Shown here: one piece after another, positions 38,247-63,878 of the stretch
Numbering within the stretch: the stretch's first letter is position 1
Layout: each line of letters opens with the position of its first letter
Source: an uncultured Actinomycetes bacterium
GTDB lineage: Bacteria > Actinomycetota > Thermoleophilia > UBA2241
Assembly: GCA_963709345.1 (NCBI GenBank)
Contig: CAVPVX010000007.1
Span: 288,001 to 352,000, forward strand
Direction of reading: 5' to 3'
Length of the DNA stretch: 64,000 nt
The notes under the pieces: model-generated
What the model was told of the DNA's origin: nothing
Seen by the model: the letters and a program-made list of their open reading frames with translations, nothing else
Databases searched by the model: none
Made by a program: the position numbers and the translations under genes

Positions 38247-38735
38247 TCACGTGGCGGCGCTGAACACCAGCGACTCGGCGCCGTCGGAGCCGAACAGGGT
38301 CAGCGTGTTCCCCGCCAGGTGGACGGAGGCCGCATCCTCCAGCAGCCGCAGATAGACCGACTCCGCCTCCATGTCGGCCTCGGGGCCGGCCATCATCGTC
38401 ACGGCCGGCTTGCCGGCCGAGAAGTCGTTGCCGGGGCCGGTCGTGTACGAGCCGGAGTACGTGTTCACGGCGCTCGTCCCGGATACTTGACCGTCGGCGA
38501 AGGCCGCCGTGATCGTGAAGTCGAGGGGGTCGAGTCCACTCTCGCGCCAGCGCACGAGGGTCCACTCGGTGCCCTCCAGGTCGACGGCCTCGGGCTCGCC
38601 CGATCCGCCGCCGGTACCGTCGTCCGCCCCGTCGCCCCCGCACCCGCCGAGGCAGAACAGCGCTGCTGCCGCCGCCACGACCGCCGCGATGACGATGGCC
38701 ATCGTCACACGCCGTCTGAGCCAAGAGAGTGTCAT
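38247..38735 (-). CDS. META-domain lipoprotein
   Basis: Lipobox-like LGGC; LEGTEWTL, SGTSAVNTY, TMMAG...E. Confidence 0.72.
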   Translation of the reverse strand: MTLSWLRRRVTMAIVIAAVVAAAAALFCLGGCGGDGADDGTGGGSGEPEAVDLEGTEWTLVRWRESGLDPLDFTITAAFADGQVSGTSAVNTYSGSYTTGPGNDFSAGKPAVTMMAGPEADMEAESVYLRLLEDAASVHLAGNTLTLFGSDGAESLVFSAAT

Positions 38736-46935: not shown

Positions 46936-48325
46936 TCAGCGGTCGGCGGCGGCCTCCAGCCCGCCGGCGGCGTCGCGCCGCGACAGCCCGAGCAGCGCCG
47001 CGATGTTCGCCTTCGCCTCTTGCGGGCTGGGATCGTGCGGGTAGGTCGTCTCCGACTCGAAGAGCCGCCCCAGCCGCCGCTCGCCGCGGACCTCGTGCAT
47101 GGTGAGCGGGTCGCTGAGGTCGGCGACCGCGACGCCGAGCGCGCCGGCCACCGTCCGCTTCGCGTCTGCCAGTCTCATGCCCTTGGCCATCTCGAGCCGC
47201 GCCACCAGATCTCCGGCGGCGCGCAGCCCGTTCATTCCCGAGGCCACGGCATGGGCGACCGGCATCCCGAAGGAGTCGCCCGACCCGACCTACAAACCGT
47301 CCAGGTGCAGGATGTCGACGCAGGCACGCGAGCACCGTGAGATCGCGTCGACGGGCGCGAATGCGTTCATGGGCACGCCGCCCACGCCCATGCCGACGTT
47401 GGCGTGCACGGGGATCTTCGCGACCGCCATGCACGGCTTCATGAAGGTGAGCGCACGAGCCGTGTTCCACGCGACTGTGCGGCTCGTGTTCACGTTGACG
47501 GCCGGCCCGAAGACGGTGGCGCCGGCCTCCTGCACCACTTCGAGCTGGCCGGCGGGCTTGAGCCCGGCCAGCCGCACGCCCTTGTACTCGAGCTGCCCGT
47601 GCGTGCCGAGCACGAACTCGCCGGACATGCCGACCATGATGCCCATGTCCGGGTACTTCGCGCGCAGCCGCTCCACGGCGAGCAGCGTCGCGAGGAAGTC
47701 GGCGTCACCGCCGGCGCCGGCGGTGTCGAAGTTGATGCCGTCGGCGCCGGCCTCCCACATCTGCCCCGCCACGTACAGCATGTCGTCGACGGCCAGCTCC
47801 ACCGCGGTTTCCTGAGCGGCGCGCGCCTCGTCGATCCGCATCGCCGGGAGCAGCTCCGACCAGTTGCCGCAGGGGCCGTCGGGCTCGGAGTAGCGCCCAA
47901 GGTCCGGCTGCGCACCGTAGTGTACCGGGATAGTGACGCGCTCCTGGGCCTCCTTCATCGCCTGCTGCTCGGAGCCGACGATGGTCTTGACGGCCTTGTA
48001 CGAGTAGTCGATGTGGTAGAGCTCGCAGGAGTCCGATGCGAAGCATTGCTCGTACTGCAGCAGAGCGTCGACCCGACTGCCCTGCTGCTGCGTGCCGGTG
48101 CCGTCGAAGCTGAGGACGACTTCGTCGCCGATGTCCACAGCACTGAAGCGCGCCGAAGTCGCGAAGATATCCAGAAGGTGCTCGAGCTCGGCGTCCTCGA
48201 GCGGCGGCGACTTGGCCCGAGCTGGCCGCCGCCTCCGTGCCCTCCTCGACCTCGGCGCGCAGCTGACTGCGCGTCAGCGCCACTCCCGAGCCGTCGCCGA
48301 GCCGTGTGATGATCGTCGCTTCCAC
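46936..48325 (-). pseudogene. mtbB: Dimethylamine methyltransferase MtbB-family copy 1: in-frame TAG (Pyl) at 47290-47292 plus a +1 frameshift near 48223
   Basis: IITRLGDG N-terminus; YGAQPDLGRY; VNVNTS; GMGVGGVPM; LDGL-TAG-VGSGDSFGM...GLRAAGDLVAR. The N-terminal ~34 codons are one base out of frame. Confidence 0.82.
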
Positions 48326-48601: not shown

Positions 48602-49990
48602 ATGGCACAGCGCATCCCGACACGGCTCGGCGACGGCTCGCTCGCCGAGCTCACGCGAGCCGAGATCGAGACCGACCTGCACGCCGGGACTGAGGCGGCG
48701 GTCAAGCGAGCGAAGGTCGAGCCGCTCGCCCAGGGTGAACTCGACCACCTGCTCGACATCTTCACCTCCCCGGCCAAGTTCACCTCGGTGGACTACGGCG
48801 ACGAGGTGATCCTCGGGTTCGACGGCTCGGGCAACGCCGATCTCGGCGCGCCGATCCTCGAGCAGGTCGTCTACCAGAACCATCACGGCGCCGACATGAT
48901 CGAGCTCTGGCATCACGACTACTCGTACAAGGCCGTGCGCACGGTGCTCTCGTTCCAGACGCAGATGCTCAAGGACGCGCAGTTGCAGACGGTGATCCCG
49001 CTCAACTACGGCGCCATGCCCGACCTGGGGCGGTACTCGCAGCCCGACGGCCCCTGCCCCAACTGGTCGGAGCTCATGCCGCTGGGCAAGATCGCGGAGG
49101 CGCGGACCGCGCAGGAGGAGGCGGTCGAGCACGCCGAGCGCGACATGTGGTGCGTGGCCGAGGCGATGGTCGCCGCCGGCGCCGACGGCCTCGACTTCGA
49201 CACGGCCGGCGCGTCCGGCGACGCCGATCTGCTGGCCACACTCAACGTCACTCGGAGGATCCGTGAGACGTGGCCCGACATCGGCGTCGAGATCGGCCAG
49301 GCCGCCGAGCTCGTGCTCGGCATGCACGGTCAGCTCGAGTTCGACGGCGACCGGCTGGCCGGCCAGTGGCCGCTCGGGCAGCTCCGCGCCTGCACCGCCG
49401 CCGGCGCCACCATCTTCGGGCCGGCGGTCAATGTGAACACGACGAAGTCGCTGGCCTGGAACACCGCTCGCGCCTGCACGCTCGTGAAGCCGGTGACCGC
49501 CGAGGCCACCATCCCCGTCCACATGAACGCCGGGATGGGTGTCGGCGGCGTCCCGATGACACCGTATCCTCCGAGCGACGCCACGTCGCGCGCCTCCAAG
49601 GCGCTCGTCGACATCCTCAAGCTCGACGGGTTGTAGGTCGGCATCGGAGACCCCCTCGGGATGGCCTCCTCACACGCGCTCGCCTCGGGCATGGGCGGGA
49701 TGCGGACCGCCGGAGATCTGGTGGCCCGCATGCAGATGACCCGGGGAATGCGCCTTCCGCAGGCCAAGCAGTACGTCGCCGACAAGCTCGGCTGCTCGGT
49801 GCTCGACCTCAGCGACACCGTGGCGATGCACGACATCCGCCGCGACCTCGGCCTCGGCCGCATCCAGGTGCAGGACCTGACGTACGCCGACCACCCGGGC
49901 GCGATGGAGGCGAAGTTCCACATCGCCGACGTTCTCGGCATCCCGATCAACTCCGTGGAGTGCTTCAAAAGGCACGCCGGCGTGAAATAG
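48602..49990 (+). CDS. mtbB: MtbB-family copy 2, in-frame TAG (Pyl) at 49634-49636 (codon 345)
   Basis: IPTRLGDG...YGAMPDLG...LKLDGL-TAG-VGIGDPLGM...GMRTAGDLVARMQ...AKFHIADVLGIPINS, matching MtbB DGI-O-IGVGDPLGM. Confidence 0.92.
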
Positions 49991-50062
49991 CCGGCGTCGA
50001 AGGGCCGGCCCGCCGCCGGCCCGCCGCGAGCGCCACTGCGACGAAAGACAGCGAGGACGACG

Positions 50063-52385: not shown

Positions 52386-53783
52386 TTGGAACGGTCCGTG
52401 CGCACACGACTCGGCGACGGCTCGCTCGTCGAGATGACGCCGAGCGAGATCCGCGCCGATCTCGTCGAGGGTATGGAGCTCGGCGCCCGCCGCGCCAAGG
52501 CCCCACCGCTGAGCGAGGCCGAGATCGACCACCTGCTCGACATCTTCGCCAGCGAGGCGAAGTTCAGCGCCGTCGACATGGGCGACGAGATCGTGCTCAG
52601 CTTCGACGGCACGGGCAATCTCGACTCCGGTGCGCGCGTCGACGAGCTCTACAGCTACCAGAGCCACCGCGGCGCCGACATGCTCGAGCTCTTCTCCATC
52701 GACTACTCGTACAAGGCGATCAAGACGATCCTGAGCTACGAGACCCAGGTGATGAAGGTCGCCCAGCTCAACACGCTGGCGCCGCTGCAGTACGGCGCCA
52801 TGCCCGACCTGGGCCGCTACTCCATGCCCGACGGCCCTATCCCCAACTGGTCGGAGCTCATGCCGCTCGGCCGCATCGAGGAAGCGCGCGACGCGCAGGT
52901 GGCGGCCATCGACCATGCCGTCGCCGACATGGTCTTCGTCGCCGAGGGCATGTGGGAGGCCGGCGCCGACGGCATGGACTTCGACACCGCTGCCGCGGCC
53001 GGCGACGGCGATCTGCTTGCCACGCTCACCGCGGTCGAGAAGATCAAGCACAGGCACCCCGACTGCGGGATCGAGCTCGGGATGGCCAGCGAGTGCGTCC
53101 TCGGGATGCACGGCGAGCTCACCTACAAGGGCCGGCGCCTCGCCGGGATGTGGCCCCAGGACCAGGTCCAGGTCGCCCAGGAGGCCGGCGCCACCATCTT
53201 CGGTCCGGCGGTCAACGTCAACACGACGAAGAGCGTGGCCTGGAACGTGGCGCGCGCCTGCACGATCATCAAGCCGGCGATGGCGGTCGCCGAGATCCCC
53301 GTGCACCCGAACGTGGGCATGGGCGTCGGCGGCGTGCCGATGAGCCCCTATCCCCCAGCCGACGCCGTGTCTCGCGTCTCGCGCGCACTGGTGGACATCC
53401 TCAAGTGCGACGGGTTGTAGGTGGGCGTGGGTGACCCTCTGGGCATGGCGTGCACGCACGCGCTCGCCTCGGGCATGGGTGGAATGCGGACCGCCGGAGA
53501 TCTGGTGGGCCGCATGCAGATGACCCGGGGCATGCGCCTCAAGCAAGCCAAGACCTACGTGGCCGGCAAGCTCGGCGTCTCCGTCGCCGACCTCGCCGAC
53601 CCCATCGCCATGCACGACGTGCGCCGGGACCTCGGCCTCGGCCGCATCCCGGTGCAGGAGCTCACGTACTCGACGCACGCCGGCGCCATGGAGGCGAAGT
53701 TCCACATCGCCGAGGTGCTGGGCGTCCCGATCAACAGCGTCACGCGCTTCCAGGAGTGCGCCGGGCTGCACACCCGGGCCTGA
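52386..53783 (+). CDS. mtbB: MtbB-family copy 3, in-frame TAG (Pyl) at 53418-53420 (codon 345)
   Basis: TTG start after GGAGGT; LKCDGL-TAG-VGVGDPLGM...GMRTAGDLVGRMQ. Confidence 0.92.
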
Positions 53784-53811: not shown

Positions 53812-55281
53812 GTGAAGCGGAACCTGCACGCCGGCGGCGCCCGCAGCCGCGGGCTGAGCGTCAACGTGTTCACCGACGCCGAACTGGACGAGATCCACCT
53901 CGCCACGCTCGAGGTGCTCGAGCGCACCGGCGTCTTCGTCGAGGACGGCGAGGCGATCGACATCTTCAAGGACGGCGGCTGCCGGGTCGACCGCGAGACG
54001 CGGATGGTCCACATCCCCCCGTTCGTCACCGAGGACGCGATCCGGTCGGCGCCCAGCAGGTACACCCTGTACGGGCGCGACCCGAAGAACGACGTCGTCA
54101 TGGAGCCGGGGCGGGTCGCCTTCACGAACTTCAGCGAAGGCCTCCGCGTGATCGACCCGGAGACGGGCGAGCAGCGCGAGTCCACCAAGCAGGACATCGC
54201 CGACATCGCCCGCCTCAACGATTACCTCAGCGAGATGGACACGCACGAGATCTCCGTCGGCGCCGCGGGAGTGCCGCCGTCCACGTGCGCGGTCCACAAC
54301 AGCGAGATGCAGTTCCTCAACACCACCAAGCCGATCGGCGTCGGTCCGCTCAGCCGGCTCGAGGTCAACGCGATCTTCCGTATGGCCGCGGAGATCGTCG
54401 GCGGCGAGGACGAGCTGCGCGAGCGGCCCATCCTGTACAGCGGGGTCTGCCCCGTCAGCCCGCTCAAGCTGCCGCGCGACGTGACCGAGGTGGTCATCGA
54501 GTCGTCGCGCTGGTGGATCCCGGACAACATCCTCAGCATGGCCATGGCCGGCGGATCCAGCCCGGTCACCCTGGCCGGCTCGCTCGTCACGCACAACGCC
54601 GAGGTGCTGGCCGGCATCACGCTGGCCCAGCTCACCGAGCGCGGCTGCCCCGTCATGTACGGCAGCTCGACCACCGCCATGGACCTCAAGCTCGCAGCCG
54701 CATCCGTCGGCTCGCCGGAGATCTCGCTGATCAGCGCCGCGGTGGCGCAGATGGCGCGGCGCTACCTGCTCCCCAGCTTCGTGGCCGGGTTGTAGACGGA
54801 TTCCAAGCTCGGTGACGCGCAGGCCGGTCACGAGAAGACCCTCACCGGACTCACGGCAGCGTTGGCAGGGGCCAACCTGATCTACGGGGCGGGGATGATC
54901 GAATCGGGCGTCACCTTCGACAGTGCGCAGTTCGTGATGGACAACGAGATCGCACGCATGATCAAGCACGTGGTCGGCGGCATTCGCGTGGACGACGAAA
55001 GCCTGGCGGTGGAGGACATCGCCAAGGTCGGCGCGTTCGGCGACTTCCTGAGCCTCGACGCGACGCTGACACACATGCGCGAGCTCAGCCAGCCGACGGT
55101 GCTCGACAGGCGCGTGCGCGAAGACTGGGAGGCGCGCGGGTCGACCGACCTCTACACCCGGTGCCTCGAGACCGCGCGCGACGTCCTGCATGAGTACCGG
55201 CCCGAGCCGGTACCCAACGACGTCGCCGCACGCATCCATGCCATCGTCGAAGAGACCGACCGCGCCGCCGGCGTCGGCTGA
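53812..55281 (+). CDS. mttB: Trimethylamine methyltransferase MttB, in-frame TAG (Pyl) at 54793-54795 (codon 328)
   Basis: CPVSPL, SMAMAGGSSPVTLAG, YGSSTT, GSPE; LPSFVAGL-TAG-TDSKLGDAQAGHEKT...GANLIYGAGM, matching MttB VAG(x)-O-SD(x)K...QAGHEKT. Confidence 0.93.
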
Positions 55282-55292
55282 AGGAGACCCGT

Positions 55293-55919
55293 ATGAACGA
55301 CCAGCTCAAGCAGGCCATCATCGCCGGCGACGCCGATGTGGCCACCGCACTCACGACGGCGCTCCTCGCCACCGGGGCCACGGCGCGGGAGATCCTCGAC
55401 TCCGCCCTGCTCCCCGGCATGGAGGTCGTCGGCACGCGCATGCGTGACGGCGAGTGCTTCATCCCCGAGGTGCTGCTCTCCGCCCGCGTCATGCAGGCCT
55501 GCCTCGACCTGCTGCGCCCGCACATGGCCGCCGGCGACGAGGCCGGCGGCGGCGTGGTCGTGATCGGCACCGTCGAGGGCGACCTGCACGACATCGGCAA
55601 GAACCTCGTCGGCATGCTCCTGCAGGGGGCCGGCTTCACGGTCGTCAACCTCGGCACCGGGGTGACGGCGGCCGACTTCGTCGCCGCCGTCAAGGAGCAC
55701 GCGCCGAAGATCATCGGCATGAGCGCCCTGCTCACGACCACCCTGCCGCACATGGCCGAGACGATCGCCGCGCTCAAGGCCGAGGGCCTGCGCGACTCCG
55801 TCAAGGTGATGGTCGGCGGCGCCCCGGTGACCGCCGCCTACGCCGACGAGATCGGCGCCGACGGCTACGGCGCCAACGCCGGCATGGCGGTGGAGCGGGC
55901 GAAGGAGCTGGTGGGGTAG
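55293..55919 (+). CDS. Methyltransferase cognate corrinoid protein (MttC/MtbC-like)
   Basis: FIPEVL; GTVEGDLHDIGKNLV B12-binding motif; MSALLTTT; VMVGGAPV; ends in TAG. Confidence 0.93.
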   Translation: MNDQLKQAIIAGDADVATALTTALLATGATAREILDSALLPGMEVVGTRMRDGECFIPEVLLSARVMQACLDLLRPHMAAGDEAGGGVVVIGTVEGDLHDIGKNLVGMLLQGAGFTVVNLGTGVTAADFVAAVKEHAPKIIGMSALLTTTLPHMAETIAALKAEGLRDSVKVMVGGAPVTAAYADEIGADGYGANAGMAVERAKELVG

Positions 55920-60602: not shown

Positions 60603-61994
60603 TTACAGGCGCGCCCGCTCCTTGAACCGCTCGACGCAGTTGATCGGGATATCGAGCAGCTGGCTGATGTTGAACTTGGCCTCCATCATGCCCGCCTCGC
60701 CGGGGTGCGTGGCGGACGTCACGCTGAGCAGCCCCAGGCCATGCTCCTTGCGGATCAGCTCCATGGCCACGGGGTCGCTGAGGTCGCGCGTCGAACAGCC
60801 GAGCTTGCCGGCCACGTATTCCTTGGCTTCCTTGAGACGCATGCGTCTGGTCATCTGCATCCGAGCCACGAGATCTCCCGCTGCCCGCATACCGCCCATG
60901 CCGGACGCCTGCGTGTGGGCCGACTCCATACCGAGAGCGTCGCCCGTGCCCACCTAGTAGCCGTCGATCTTGAGGATCTCGACGAAGGCCTTGCTCGCCC
61001 GCGAGGTCGCGTCGGCCGGCGGGTAGAGGCACGTGGGGACGCCGCCGACGCCCATGCCCACGTTCACGTGGACGGGGATCGTGGCGACCTCGGCGGCCGG
61101 CTTGATGAAGGTGATCGCCCGGGCGATGTTCCAGGCGGTCGACTTGCCTGTGTTGATGTTGACGGCCGGCCCGTAGATGCTGGCGCCGGCCTCGGTGACC
61201 ATGCGCAGTTGGTCCTTGGGCCACATTCCGGCGAGCCTGCTGCCGTCAAACTCGAGCTGGCCGTGCATGCCGAGCACGAACTCGGCCGCCATGCCGATCT
61301 CGATGCCGAGCCACGGGTACTTCGTGCGCAGCTTGCGGCAGGCGGTGAGGGCGGCGAGGAAGTCGGCGTCGCCCGCCGCCCCGGTCGTGTCCATGTCGAT
61401 GCCGTCGGCGCCGGCCTCGATCATGGCGTCGGCGACGAAGCCGATGTCCTCGACCAGCATCTCGCACGCCTCCACCTGGGCGTCGCGCGCCTCGGCGATC
61501 TTGCCCATCGGCAGCAGCTCGGACCAGTTGGGAATGGGGCCGTCCGGCTTGGAATACCGGCCCAGGTCGGGCATGGCGCCGTACTGCACGGGGTTGGTGA
61601 GCAGCGCCTGGGCGATCTTCATGGTCTGGCCCTCGTGGGCCACGTTGGTCTTGACGGCCTTGTACGAATAGTCGGCCTGCCACAGCTCGACCATGTCGAT
61701 GCCGACGACCGTCTCGTAGCTCTGCAGGTCTTGCACGCGGTTGCCGATGTGCTTGGTCCCCGTACCGTCGTTCGACATGACGACTTCGTCGCCGATGTCG
61801 ACGGCGGTGAACCGCGCCGCCGAGGCGTAGATGTCGAGCAGGTGGTCGAGCTCCTCCTGCGTGAGCTCGGGCACCTTGGCCTTCTTGGCCGCGATCTGGG
61901 TACCGGCCTCGAGATCGGCCTTGATCTCGGAACGCGTCAGCTCGACGAGCGACCCGTCACCCATGCGTGTGGGGATCCTGGGCTCCAATGGCAT
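60603..61994 (-). CDS. mtbB: MtbB-family copy 4, in-frame TAG (Pyl) at 60954-60956 (codon 347)
   Basis: IPTRMGDG...LKIDGY-TAG-VGTGDALGM...GMRAAGDLVARMQ...AKFNISQLLDIPINC. Confidence 0.92.
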
Positions 61995-62477: not shown

Positions 62478-63878
62478 TCAGGAGACGGCAGGACCTCGGC
62501 GCGTCCGCTCCGCGAACGCCTCGACCGAGCGCACCGGCAGGTCGAGCACATCCGTGATGGTGAACTTGGCCTCGATCGCCAGCGCGTCGGCGGTCGTCGC
62601 CGTGTCCTCGCTGGGGATCGTCCCCAGCCCGAGCTCACGTCGCACGTCCCACATGACCACCGGGTCGCTCAGATCTCCCGGCTCCACGCCGAGCTTGTCC
62701 GCCACGGCCGCCTTGGCCTCGGGGAGTCGCATCCTTCGCGTCAGCTGCATGCGGGCCACCAGATCTCCGGCGGTCCGCAGTCCGCCCATACCCGACGCGA
62801 CACCATGCCCTATCCCTTGGCTGTGGTTGTCGCCGGCTCCTATCTACAAACCGTCCAGCCGCAGGATGTCGACGCAGGCGCGCGAGGCGCGCGAGACGGC
62901 ATCGACCGGCGGCAGCGCGTGCATGGGCACGCCGCCGACGCCCATGCCGCCGTTCATGTGTACGGGGATCTCGGCGGCGCGGGAACACGGCTTGACGATG
63001 GTGCAGGCGCGCGCGACGTTCCAGGCGACCGACTTGCCGGTGTTGACGTTGACGGCCGGACCGAAGACCGAGGCGCCGGCCTGCGCCGCCAGGCGCATCT
63101 GCGCCTCGGGCCAGAGCCCGGCCAGCCGTACGCCCTCGTACTCGAGCTCGCCGTGCATGCCGAGGACGAACTCGCTCGCCATGCCGATCTGGATGCCCCA
63201 GTCCGGGTATTTCGCGCGGATCCGCTCGATGGCGCGCAGCGCCGCCAGGAAGTCGGCGTCGCCCGCGGCGCCGGCGGTGTCGAGGTTGATGCCGTCGGCG
63301 CCCGCCTCGTACATGCCCTCGGCGACGTAGACGATGTCGTCGACGGCCAGCTCGACGGCCGCCTCCTGGGCAGCGCGGGCGTCGTCGATCCTGCCCAGCG
63401 GCAGTAGCCGCGACCAGTTGGGCACCGGCCCGTCGGGTTCCGTGTAGCGCCCGAGGTCCGGCATGGCGCCGTAGTTGCACGGAATAGTCAGCAGGAGTTG
63501 CGCCCGGCGCATCGTCGCCTGCTCGAAGGGCAGCACCGGCTTGATCGGCTTGAAGGAGTAGTCGTGATGGTAGAGCTCGACGGTGTCGGTGCAGACTGTC
63601 TGCTCGTAGTTCTGCAGGTCGTTGATGCGTGAGCCGGCGTCCTGGCTGCCGACGCCGTCCGAGGTGAGCACCACCTCGTCGCCGATGTCGACGGCGGTGA
63701 ACCGCGCGGGGCTGGCGAAGATGTCGACCAGGTGGCCGAGCTCACCCTCGTCGAGCGGCTCGACCTTGGCTCGCCGGACGGCCGCCTCCGTGCCGTCGCG
63801 TACCTCGGCTTCGATGCCGGCACGGCTCATCCGCACCAGCGAGCCGTCGCCCATCCGTGTCGGGATGACGCTGTCCAT
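62478..63878 (-). CDS. mtbB: MtbB-family copy 5, in-frame TAG (Pyl) at 62844-62846 (codon 345)
   Basis: IPTRMGDG...LRLDGL-TAG-IGAGDNHSQG...GLRTAGDLVARMQ. Confidence 0.92.

Follow-up and report, generated by a model that had tools for sequence, protein, structure and literature searches.

How does a bacterium that translates some UAG codons as pyrrolysine (Pyl) and terminates translation at others keep the two apart? Distinguishing stop UAGs from Pyl UAGs in one organism is an open question, and it is posed directly by a 64,000-nucleotide stretch of DNA (hereafter the window; contig CAVPVX010000007.1, positions 288,001 to 352,000, assembly GCA_963709345.1) from an uncultured actinomycete of the Thermoleophilia (UBA2241). 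The window has a G+C content of 69%, belongs to a genome of 3.11 Mb, and carries five dimethylamine methyltransferase (mtbB) genes, each with one in-frame TAG, together with a nonhomologous Pyl-type methyltransferase gene, mttB. All of these UAG codons are followed by a hairpin, and these hairpins, along with the codon that immediately precedes the UAG (the -1 codon), are the subject of this study.

The organism uses UAG both as an ordinary stop and as a Pyl codon. Its pyrrolysine machinery comprises pylT (C11:14991-15063), a split pylSn and pylSc, and pylB. Six further mtbB copies or fragments lie elsewhere in the genome, which also contains nine strong matches to the Pyl-type MttB protein of the window (E <= 1e-100) and many MttB-family paralogues of the non-Pyl type. 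TAG is the stop codon of approximately 22% (251/1146) of long open reading frames (ORFs) rich in third-position G+C (GC3), a genome-wide share obtained with a crude ORF filter and with the Pyl genes counted in. Within the window, mtbB copy 2 uses TAG twice, as its Pyl codon and as its own stop (Table 1), and the gene for a corrinoid (B12-binding) protein that adjoins mttB on its 3' side ends in TAG (55917-55919).

A selected RNA hairpin in mtbB

The hairpin downstream of the mtbB UAG is a real, sense-strand RNA structure, the pairing of which has been kept by selection beyond the constraint imposed by the protein. The decisive support for this conclusion comes from larger alignments, the evidence from any single copy being weak. 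In the window, GGAGATCT is found, on one strand or the other, at 49712, 53496, 47207, 60871, and 62761; as the initial annotation of this DNA had stated, it begins 75 nt past the last base of the TAG in all five copies (codon tables, gapless alignment). It lies at the center of an inverted repeat with 11 to 13 of 14 possible pairs and a loop of AGAU, the stem of which starts 63 nt past the UAG. The 13 pairs originally counted in copy 2 were recovered in the 14-pair register, and for copy 1 the interval first given (47198-47223) proved to be the inner part of the full register. Three sequence differences that had been read as compensatory or pair preserving were also present in the codon tables: copy 4 has GCG/CTC for GCC/CTG at one pair and a G-U at the other, and copy 1 has CGC/GCG for CGG/GCC.

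The hairpin spans codons +22 to +32 (TAG being codon 0), which encode the peptide M/I-R-T/A-A-G-D-L-V-A-R-M. By inspection, 10 of the 14 pairs join first and second codon positions and are fixed by this near-invariant peptide (AU/AU of Met, CG/CG of Arg, GC of Ala, Ala/Val, and Gly/Leu); only four pairs, 22.3-31.3, 23.3-30.3, 24.3-29.3, and 25.3-28.3 (codon and position), join two third positions. Synonymous recoding showed that the amino acid sequence alone yields 9.5 to 11.8 of the 14 pairs. The control of synonymous shuffling, which the initial annotation had put forward as a check, gave a divided answer: single copies returned P values of 0.03 to 0.59, but the five copies pooled had 61 pairs, compared with 52.3 +/- 2.4 after recoding, and a summed minimum free energy of -102.9 kcal/mol, compared with -71.8 +/- 7.7 kcal/mol, neither value being reached in 1,000 recodings.

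The larger sample, drawn from this genome plus 30 loci in related genomes, 80 genome-contig loci, and 80 diverse metagenome loci, comprised 203 mtbB genes (199 unique; GC3, 32% to 98%). The genome-contig loci were labeled Thermoleophilia or Actinomycetota, save one labeled Deltaproteobacteria (L038), and the loci closest to those of the window, at 87 to 90% protein identity, were in metagenome-assembled genomes labeled Thermoleophilia or Actinomycetota. All 203 genes have TAG at the Pyl column; the Q or L found at this position in three full-length database proteins (P0045, P0092, and P0083) was taken as a gene-caller code.

Among the unique genes, the four third-position pairs were formed in 147/198, 139/198, 151/198, and 172/199 cases, where column composition predicts 90, 84, 99, and 124, and between them showed every one of the combinations GC, CG, AU, UA, GU, and UG. 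Compared with all other third-position column pairs of the gene, which have the same tree in common, the four pairs ranked 4, 6, 10, and 14 among 94,395 in the 199 genes and 1, 2, 3, and 16 among 93,533 in the 122 Thermoleophilia genes. Parsimony on a tree from which the hairpin had been masked gave 7, 24, 24, and 6 pair-preserving double changes at these pairs; the corresponding values for 286 control pairs were a mean of 3.5, a 95th percentile of 9, and a maximum of 16. Of 191 unique 105-nt segments, 150 were used for structure-pair counting; those omitted (41) were the least like the copy in the window and mostly members of a hairpin-poor cluster considered below. In these 150 segments, 87.6% of cells were paired, compared with 79.5 +/- 0.4% after shuffling (0/500 shuffles reached the observed value), and 144 cells had changed on both sides, compared with 50.6 in the shuffles; registers slid by 1 to 3 columns were only 31 to 41% paired. 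The covariation first noticed in five copies is strong in the larger alignments.

A helix scan of the whole gene in the Thermoleophilia set returned 30 candidate helices, and covarying pairs were confined to the two halves of this hairpin; the scan gave no second helix with covarying pairs, the vicinity of the UAG included. Wobble pairs (U-G and G-U) are common in the stem (UG 32 and 20), which favors an RNA of the sense strand over a palindrome in the DNA or an antisense RNA. Contigs of relatives from RNA libraries (four runs, aligned to 49300-50000) stack on 49684-49755, and two span both the TAG and the hairpin (X7, 49569-49758, with three differences; X8, 49628-49814, with five differences); matches made up small shares of the sequencing runs (<=0.26). 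This stacking shows nucleotide conservation and is silent on transcript ends, levels, and function; it would be expected if no part of the gene were more conserved in nucleotide sequence than the hairpin region. As a separate observation, 10/199 unique genes (12/203 before deduplication; e.g., the metagenome loci L153, L156, L158, L164, and L171) have Trp (TGG) instead of Arg at +31, a position that otherwise does not vary; TGG still forms a G-U pair with the Arg codon opposite it in the stem.

Constrained codons and a parallel hairpin in mttB

Selection is also apparent in the loop. The Gly codon that opens it (+26) is GGA in 182/199 mtbB genes, and in 123 of the 126 high-GC3 genes, although GGA accounts for just 6.8% of Gly codons in the latter; likewise, the Asp codon (+27) is GAT in 87/126, although GAT accounts for 11.6% of Asp codons. 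Both are therefore nonpreferred codons, as was proposed from the window alone. A likelihood-ratio scan of codon usage at every column of the 122 Thermoleophilia genes gave +26 GGA (349), -1 TTG (287), and +27 GAT (113) as the strongest outliers, the next column scoring 84, so that both hairpin codons stand among the top three in the kind of synonymous-site scan that had been envisaged. In two mid-GC metagenome clusters (GC3, 0.56 to 0.59), GGA and GAT are each found in 27/27 genes, as is the string GGA GAT CTG. Since GGA and GAT are universal at mid GC, it is the bases that are conserved and not codon rarity; the rare GGA codon is what keeps A as the first base of the loop. At -1, the same 122 genes have TTG in 96 cases and TAC in 20. 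This rare Leu codon was also seen at -1 in two other Pyl genes, with counts of 96/122 in mtbB, 35/62 in mttB (otherwise GCG), and 11/12 in Pyl-type mtmB; all three genes read Gly-Leu-Pyl.

Within the same lineage, an analogous constrained stem-loop is found in mtbB and in the nonhomologous mttB, at a near-equal distance from the UAG. The mttB hairpin, which the initial annotation had described as built from the rare codons TTG and GCA, is indeed present. In 62 unique Pyl-type Thermoleophilia genes the motif GCG TTG GCA GGN GCC AAC is near invariant, with TTG and GCA in 61/62 genes each; gene-wide, TTG makes up 6.7% of Leu codons and GCA 5.6% of Ala codons. These two are the largest codon-usage outliers of mttB (log-likelihood ratios, 161 and 179), and the third is the -1 codon (TTG 35, GCG 22). 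In both mtbB and mttB, then, no synonymous sites deviate more strongly than the hairpin codons and the -1 codon. The final position of the mttB loop is free (AGGG 35, AGGC 18, AGGT 5, and AGGA 3). Two exceptional genes keep the helix by means of amino acid changes (CTG with AAC to GGC; GCA/GCC to GGA/CTC), and the outer-stem pair 66-86 is AU in 37 genes, GU in 14, and UA in 9. With the T of TAG as nt 1, the base of the stem is at nt 65 to 69 in mttB and nt 67 in mtbB, which places it 61 to 65 nt and 63 nt, respectively, past the last base of the TAG.

Among non-Pyl MttB homologues, the nearest one (L221; 41% identity) has GCG at the Pyl column and encodes the identical peptide AALAGAN, but does so with CTG and GCC, which are common codons; common codons are also used by three distant non-Pyl paralogues that have ALAGA. 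Although the mttB hairpin lies inside a match to the Rfam family RF02510 (PYLIS_3), it is absent from the consensus structure of that family, which has its pairs at model positions 76 to 97; the hairpin falls at 65 to 87, where the consensus is not self-complementary.

A third Pyl gene, mtmB, was represented by only 12 Pyl-type genes of low diversity after a search of 89 genomes of the family. Approximately 90 to 104 nt past the TAG there is a candidate hairpin of 5 bp, CAGCU-GAAUG-AGCUG (L228 to L233 and L260 to L264). The rare codon AAT is present in 12/12, and all variants are wobble compatible, in sequences that are few and similar; the loop and the distance differ from those of mtbB and mttB. 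One non-Pyl homologue with the peptide LNELK has AAC instead of AAT.

Table 1. Hairpins, UAG codons, and associated features in the window (coordinates are window positions)
Feature	Position	Strand	Details
mtbB copy 1 hairpin	47195..47226	-	11/14 pairs, outer three broken; in-frame TAG 47290-47292
PYLIS_2 match, copy 1	47193-47292	-	65 bits
mtbB copy 2 gene	48602..49990	+	Pfam PF09505, 527.7 bits; stop TAG 49988-49990
mtbB copy 2 in-frame TAG (Pyl codon)	49634..49636	+	preceded by rare Leu codon TTG (49631-49633)
mtbB copy 2 hairpin	49700..49731	+	13/14 pairs; loop AGAU 49714-49717
Rfam RF02509 (PYLIS_2) match, copy 2	49634..49733	+	68 bits; gathering score 36
mtbB copy 3 hairpin	53484..53515	+	13/14 pairs; in-frame TAG 53418-53420; gene 52386-53783
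PYLIS_2 match, copy 3	53418-53517	+	64.4 bits
mttB in-frame TAG	54793..54795	+	preceded by TTG; gene 53812-55281, Pfam PF06253
mttB hairpin	54857..54879	+	CAG(C)GUUGGC-AGGG-GCCAACCUG; 6-bp core 54861-54876, loop 54867-54870
Rfam RF02510 (PYLIS_3) match at mttB UAG	54793-54892	+	71.8 bits; gathering score 38
mtbB copy 4 hairpin	60859..60890	-	12/14 pairs; GCG/CTC compensatory pair
mtbB copy 4 in-frame TAG	60954-60956	-	preceded by TAC; PYLIS_2 match, 57.7 bits
mtbB copy 5 hairpin	62749..62780	-	12/14 pairs; in-frame TAG 62844-62846; PYLIS_2 match, 46.8 bits
TTG before TAG	49631-49633, 53415-53417, 54790-54792	+	
TTG before TAG	47293-47295, 62847-62849	-	

Several further features of the genome were observed. 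A broken mtbB copy at C11:176091-177485 (several frames by tblastn) retains the TAG, the preceding TTG, and the hairpin core GGA GAT CTG. ARAGORN called a tRNA-Sec gene at C1:120215-120312 and a tRNA-Pyl gene at C11:14991-15063; because of these calls, the organism might employ both the 21st and the 22nd amino acids. The same program reported, on the minus strand of the window (38638-38731), a tRNA-like sequence of 94 nt whose two-base anticodon was undefined, and it made three similar odd calls elsewhere in the genome. In the open-access literature, "pyrrolysine" and "Thermoleophilia" occurred together in one paper only, which was unrelated.

Possible roles of the hairpin

The concurrence of these signals in two Pyl genes suggests that the hairpin and the -1 codon may be cis signals that serve the translation of UAG as pyrrolysine; on sequence evidence, we regard the chances of this role as evenly poised, and the case for it as plausible yet circumstantial. 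The stem lies some 50 nt past the entry of a ribosome that is decoding the UAG and therefore is no SECIS-like (selenocysteine insertion sequence-like) or pseudoknot-like roadblock for that ribosome. It can be speculated that the hairpin slows the ribosome in front and that those behind it then line up over the UAG or, alternatively, that the hairpin binds a factor. Tentatively, and with rather less confidence, we propose that a two-part mRNA signal marks Pyl UAGs in bacteria where UAG is also a stop and has evolved independently in nonhomologous methyltransferase genes. The first part would be the codon ahead of the UAG, in the P site of the ribosome, which would be U/A rich and usually UUG; the second would be a stable hairpin with an AGRN tetraloop and its base approximately 61 to 65 nt 3' of the UAG. 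Such a hairpin would act at a distance, either through a stalled leader that puts the A site of its followers on the UAG or through a recruited factor. If true, this would give Pyl recoding its first cis-acting signal backed by covariation, and it would answer how bacteria distinguish Pyl UAGs from stop UAGs. The four synonymous stem pairs, one loop base, and the -1 codon provide precise, mutable targets for the study of read-through.

Two other ways in which the hairpin might be connected to decoding were considered. Mimicry of tRNA-Pyl was rejected, since a comparison by eye of the organism's own pylT with the hairpin gave no convincing likeness. Inspection by eye likewise revealed nothing to indicate a kissing or long-range interaction between the loop and the region of the UAG, both of which are invariant.

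Several points weigh against a role in UAG decoding. The first group of points concerns the structure itself. Because the peptide is almost invariant, most of the helix is expected without selection at the RNA level; copy 4, taken singly, is null under recoding (P 0.59). The RNAalifold check envisaged in the initial annotation gave no more than the three innermost pairs for 150 sequences, at -0.51 kcal/mol. Since about half of the columns are constrained by the protein, we regard this result as evidence against a strong consensus fold and not as a refutation.

A second group of points concerns distribution. When the mtbB genes were clustered at 55% protein identity, four clusters (151 sequences) had the hairpin, with means of 11.7 to 12.6 pairs, GGA in 100%, and TTG dominant at -1. 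A further cluster of 45 is largely without it: the mean is 9.4 pairs, GGA is present in 64%, the third-position pairs are formed at frequencies of 0.31 to 0.56, and ATA dominates at -1. The Arg codons of the outer stem in this cluster are mostly AGR, and the outer pairs are therefore broken. The cluster is the one nearest to the only archaeal-named hit, P0098 ("Ca. Methanohalarchaeum"), and we refer to it as archaeal-like, a label based on mean protein identity to P0098; the single member from a bacterial genome of the same class as the window (L001) has a hairpin with 12/14 pairs. In 77 metagenome sequences, the four free pairs rank just 106 to 1459 of 76,249. The poor pairing in this cluster and the low metagenome ranks indicate that the element is not general to Pyl decoding. 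Moreover, with TAG in all 203 genes, hairpin and UAG are inseparable in mtbB, and the non-Pyl control in mttB is small, comprising one close sequence and three distant ones.

The remaining points concern distance and precedent. The loops are at nt 75 to 78 in mttB and nt 81 to 84 in mtbB, 6 nt apart, so that the distances from the UAG are similar but not identical. Known local stimulators of read-through or of selenocysteine (Sec) insertion lie within approximately 10 nt, compared with 63 nt for the mtbB stem, and the distance means that direct contact with the decoding ribosome is ruled out and that any action would have to be indirect. Finally, reviews state, with respect to the mtmB PYLIS, that Pyl insertion needs no cis element (PMC8211752; bioRxiv 10.1101/2024.09.30.615893).

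The strongest alternative to a decoding role is selection of the mRNA structure for a function unrelated to UAG decoding, and we consider it a serious, if somewhat less probable, explanation. Candidate functions are protection from or targeting by ribonucleases, slowed translation for C-terminal folding or cofactor loading, and an operator for a regulatory RNA-binding protein. Covariation and the constraint on the loop show that a structure was selected but not for what purpose, a distance of 63 nt from the UAG suits direct action on the ribosome poorly, and no peptide in the C-terminal part of the protein is better conserved than the one encoded by the hairpin, so that a link to folding or to this region of the protein is conceivable. 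However, a function of this kind leaves unexplained why AGRN hairpins should lie nearly equidistant from the UAG in two nonhomologous Pyl genes, why the hairpin and the -1 codon should be the top synonymous outliers in both, and why the nearest non-Pyl MttB should encode the same peptide with common codons (n = 1).

It is unlikely that what has been selected is an internal Shine-Dalgarno-like sequence. According to this explanation, the loop and its flank (GGAGAU in mtbB, AGGGG in mttB) would cause pausing, or reinitiation after termination at the UAG, with the stem serving to present them. The two loop positions under constraint in mtbB, A in GGA and the favored U in GAU, do bring the sequence closer to the Shine-Dalgarno core, as judged by inspection against the general consensus, and the loops of both genes are purine-rich AGRN sequences. 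However, there is no well-spaced, conserved start codon, V29 being GTG in 112/199 genes and the ATG of M32 lying 14 nt away; mttB matches the consensus only partially. Nor would such a sequence alone account for 24 compensatory changes in the stem. That the palindrome has no RNA-level function, and is a by-product of the peptide, GC-rich third positions, and paralogue ancestry, is most improbable: mutually complementary codons (Met/Met, Arg/Arg, Ala/Ala, Ala/Val, and Gly/Leu), the pairs given by the peptide alone, the single-copy P values, the near-zero RNAalifold consensus energy, and third-position pairing at chance in the archaeal-like cluster are what it would predict, but it does not predict the same-tree ranks of the four pairs in Thermoleophilia, 24 compensatory double changes where none of the 286 control pairs has as many, or the near-fixation of GGA in high-GC3 genes and the fixation of GGA GAT CTG in mid-GC clusters.

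Comparison with known elements

The yeast RNase III Rnt1p recognizes hairpins with AGNN tetraloops, a pattern that fits the mtbB loops (AGAU/AGAC) and the mttB loop (AGGN), in which A and G are the constrained bases. Rnt1p is a eukaryotic enzyme, however, and the resemblance is a lead only; we know of no bacterial reader of AGNN loops.

A second likeness is to the bacterial SECIS, which is bound by a dedicated factor, SelB; to our knowledge, there is no dedicated elongation factor for Pyl. Like the SECIS, the hairpin lies within the coding sequence, 3' of a recoded stop codon, and is overlaid on codons with selection at synonymous sites. Unlike the SECIS, which adjoins the UGA directly on its 3' side (PMC1976440), the stems of mtbB and mttB are 63 nt and 61 to 65 nt away, outside the approximately 10 to 15 nt expected of a SECIS-like element. 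The same 2007 paper called a bacterial cis element for Pyl "reasonable" but reported that no common structure had been found.

The hairpin is also reminiscent of the pyrrolysine insertion sequence (PYLIS) of mtmB1 (RF01982), a structure proposed 3' of the UAG in monomethylamine methyltransferase genes of Methanosarcina (PMC3639795). Both are mRNA structures that follow a Pyl UAG by less than approximately 100 nt within genes for methylamine methyltransferases, and both have been proposed to favor translation of the UAG. The mtmB1 PYLIS differs in that it belongs to a nonhomologous gene, has another structure, and begins near the UAG, and three sources report it to be nonessential (PMC3639795; PMC8211752; bioRxiv 10.1101/2024.09.30.615893).

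The closest relative is PYLIS_2 (RF02509, "Pyrrolysine insertion sequence mtbB"). By cmscan, this family, a 100-nt model that begins with the UAG, matches all five mtbB copies of the window, the genes of which match Pfam PF09505, at 46.8 to 68 bits, with the TAG at model position 1 each time. Its consensus contains two helices, the second of which (positions 73 to 80 with 85 to 92, loop aGAc) is the hairpin under study. The hairpin is therefore a member of an already catalogued, predicted Rfam family and is not new as an object. The initial annotation, according to which a covarying bacterial element would be new, overstated its novelty, whereas the proposal of a covarying structure with an analogue in mttB has held. 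The family appears to derive from the consensus of Have et al. (2013), a purely predictive paper in which the structure of mtbB was predicted from a design of 100 nt after the UAG; a "relatively canonical" structure could be drawn for mtmB and mtbB but not for mttB (PMC3639795).

PYLIS_2 and the hairpin share the same gene, the same start at the in-frame UAG, and helix 2, which in 150 sequences is paired in 88.4% of cells, with two of seven pairs changed on both sides. They differ in the extent of this helix, which in Rfam has seven pairs and omits 25.3-28.3, whereas in the present lineage it spans 14 positions and uses CGN Arg codons. They also differ in helix 1 (positions 7 to 19 with 25 to 38), which is poorly kept here, with 64.7% of cells paired, several pairs about half unpaired, and many noncanonical pairs marked by cmscan in the copies of the window. 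The function of the family is itself a prediction. Searches of the open-access literature, excluding supplements, found no paper that describes the covariation, the hairpin of mttB, or the UUG codon at -1; what appears to be new, in that it did not turn up in the literature, is the strength of the evolutionary support, the bacterial extension of the helix, the parallel hairpin in mttB, and the UUG at -1. For an Rfam family that is commonly held to be doubtful, these results provide one helix with strong evolutionary support in bacteria.

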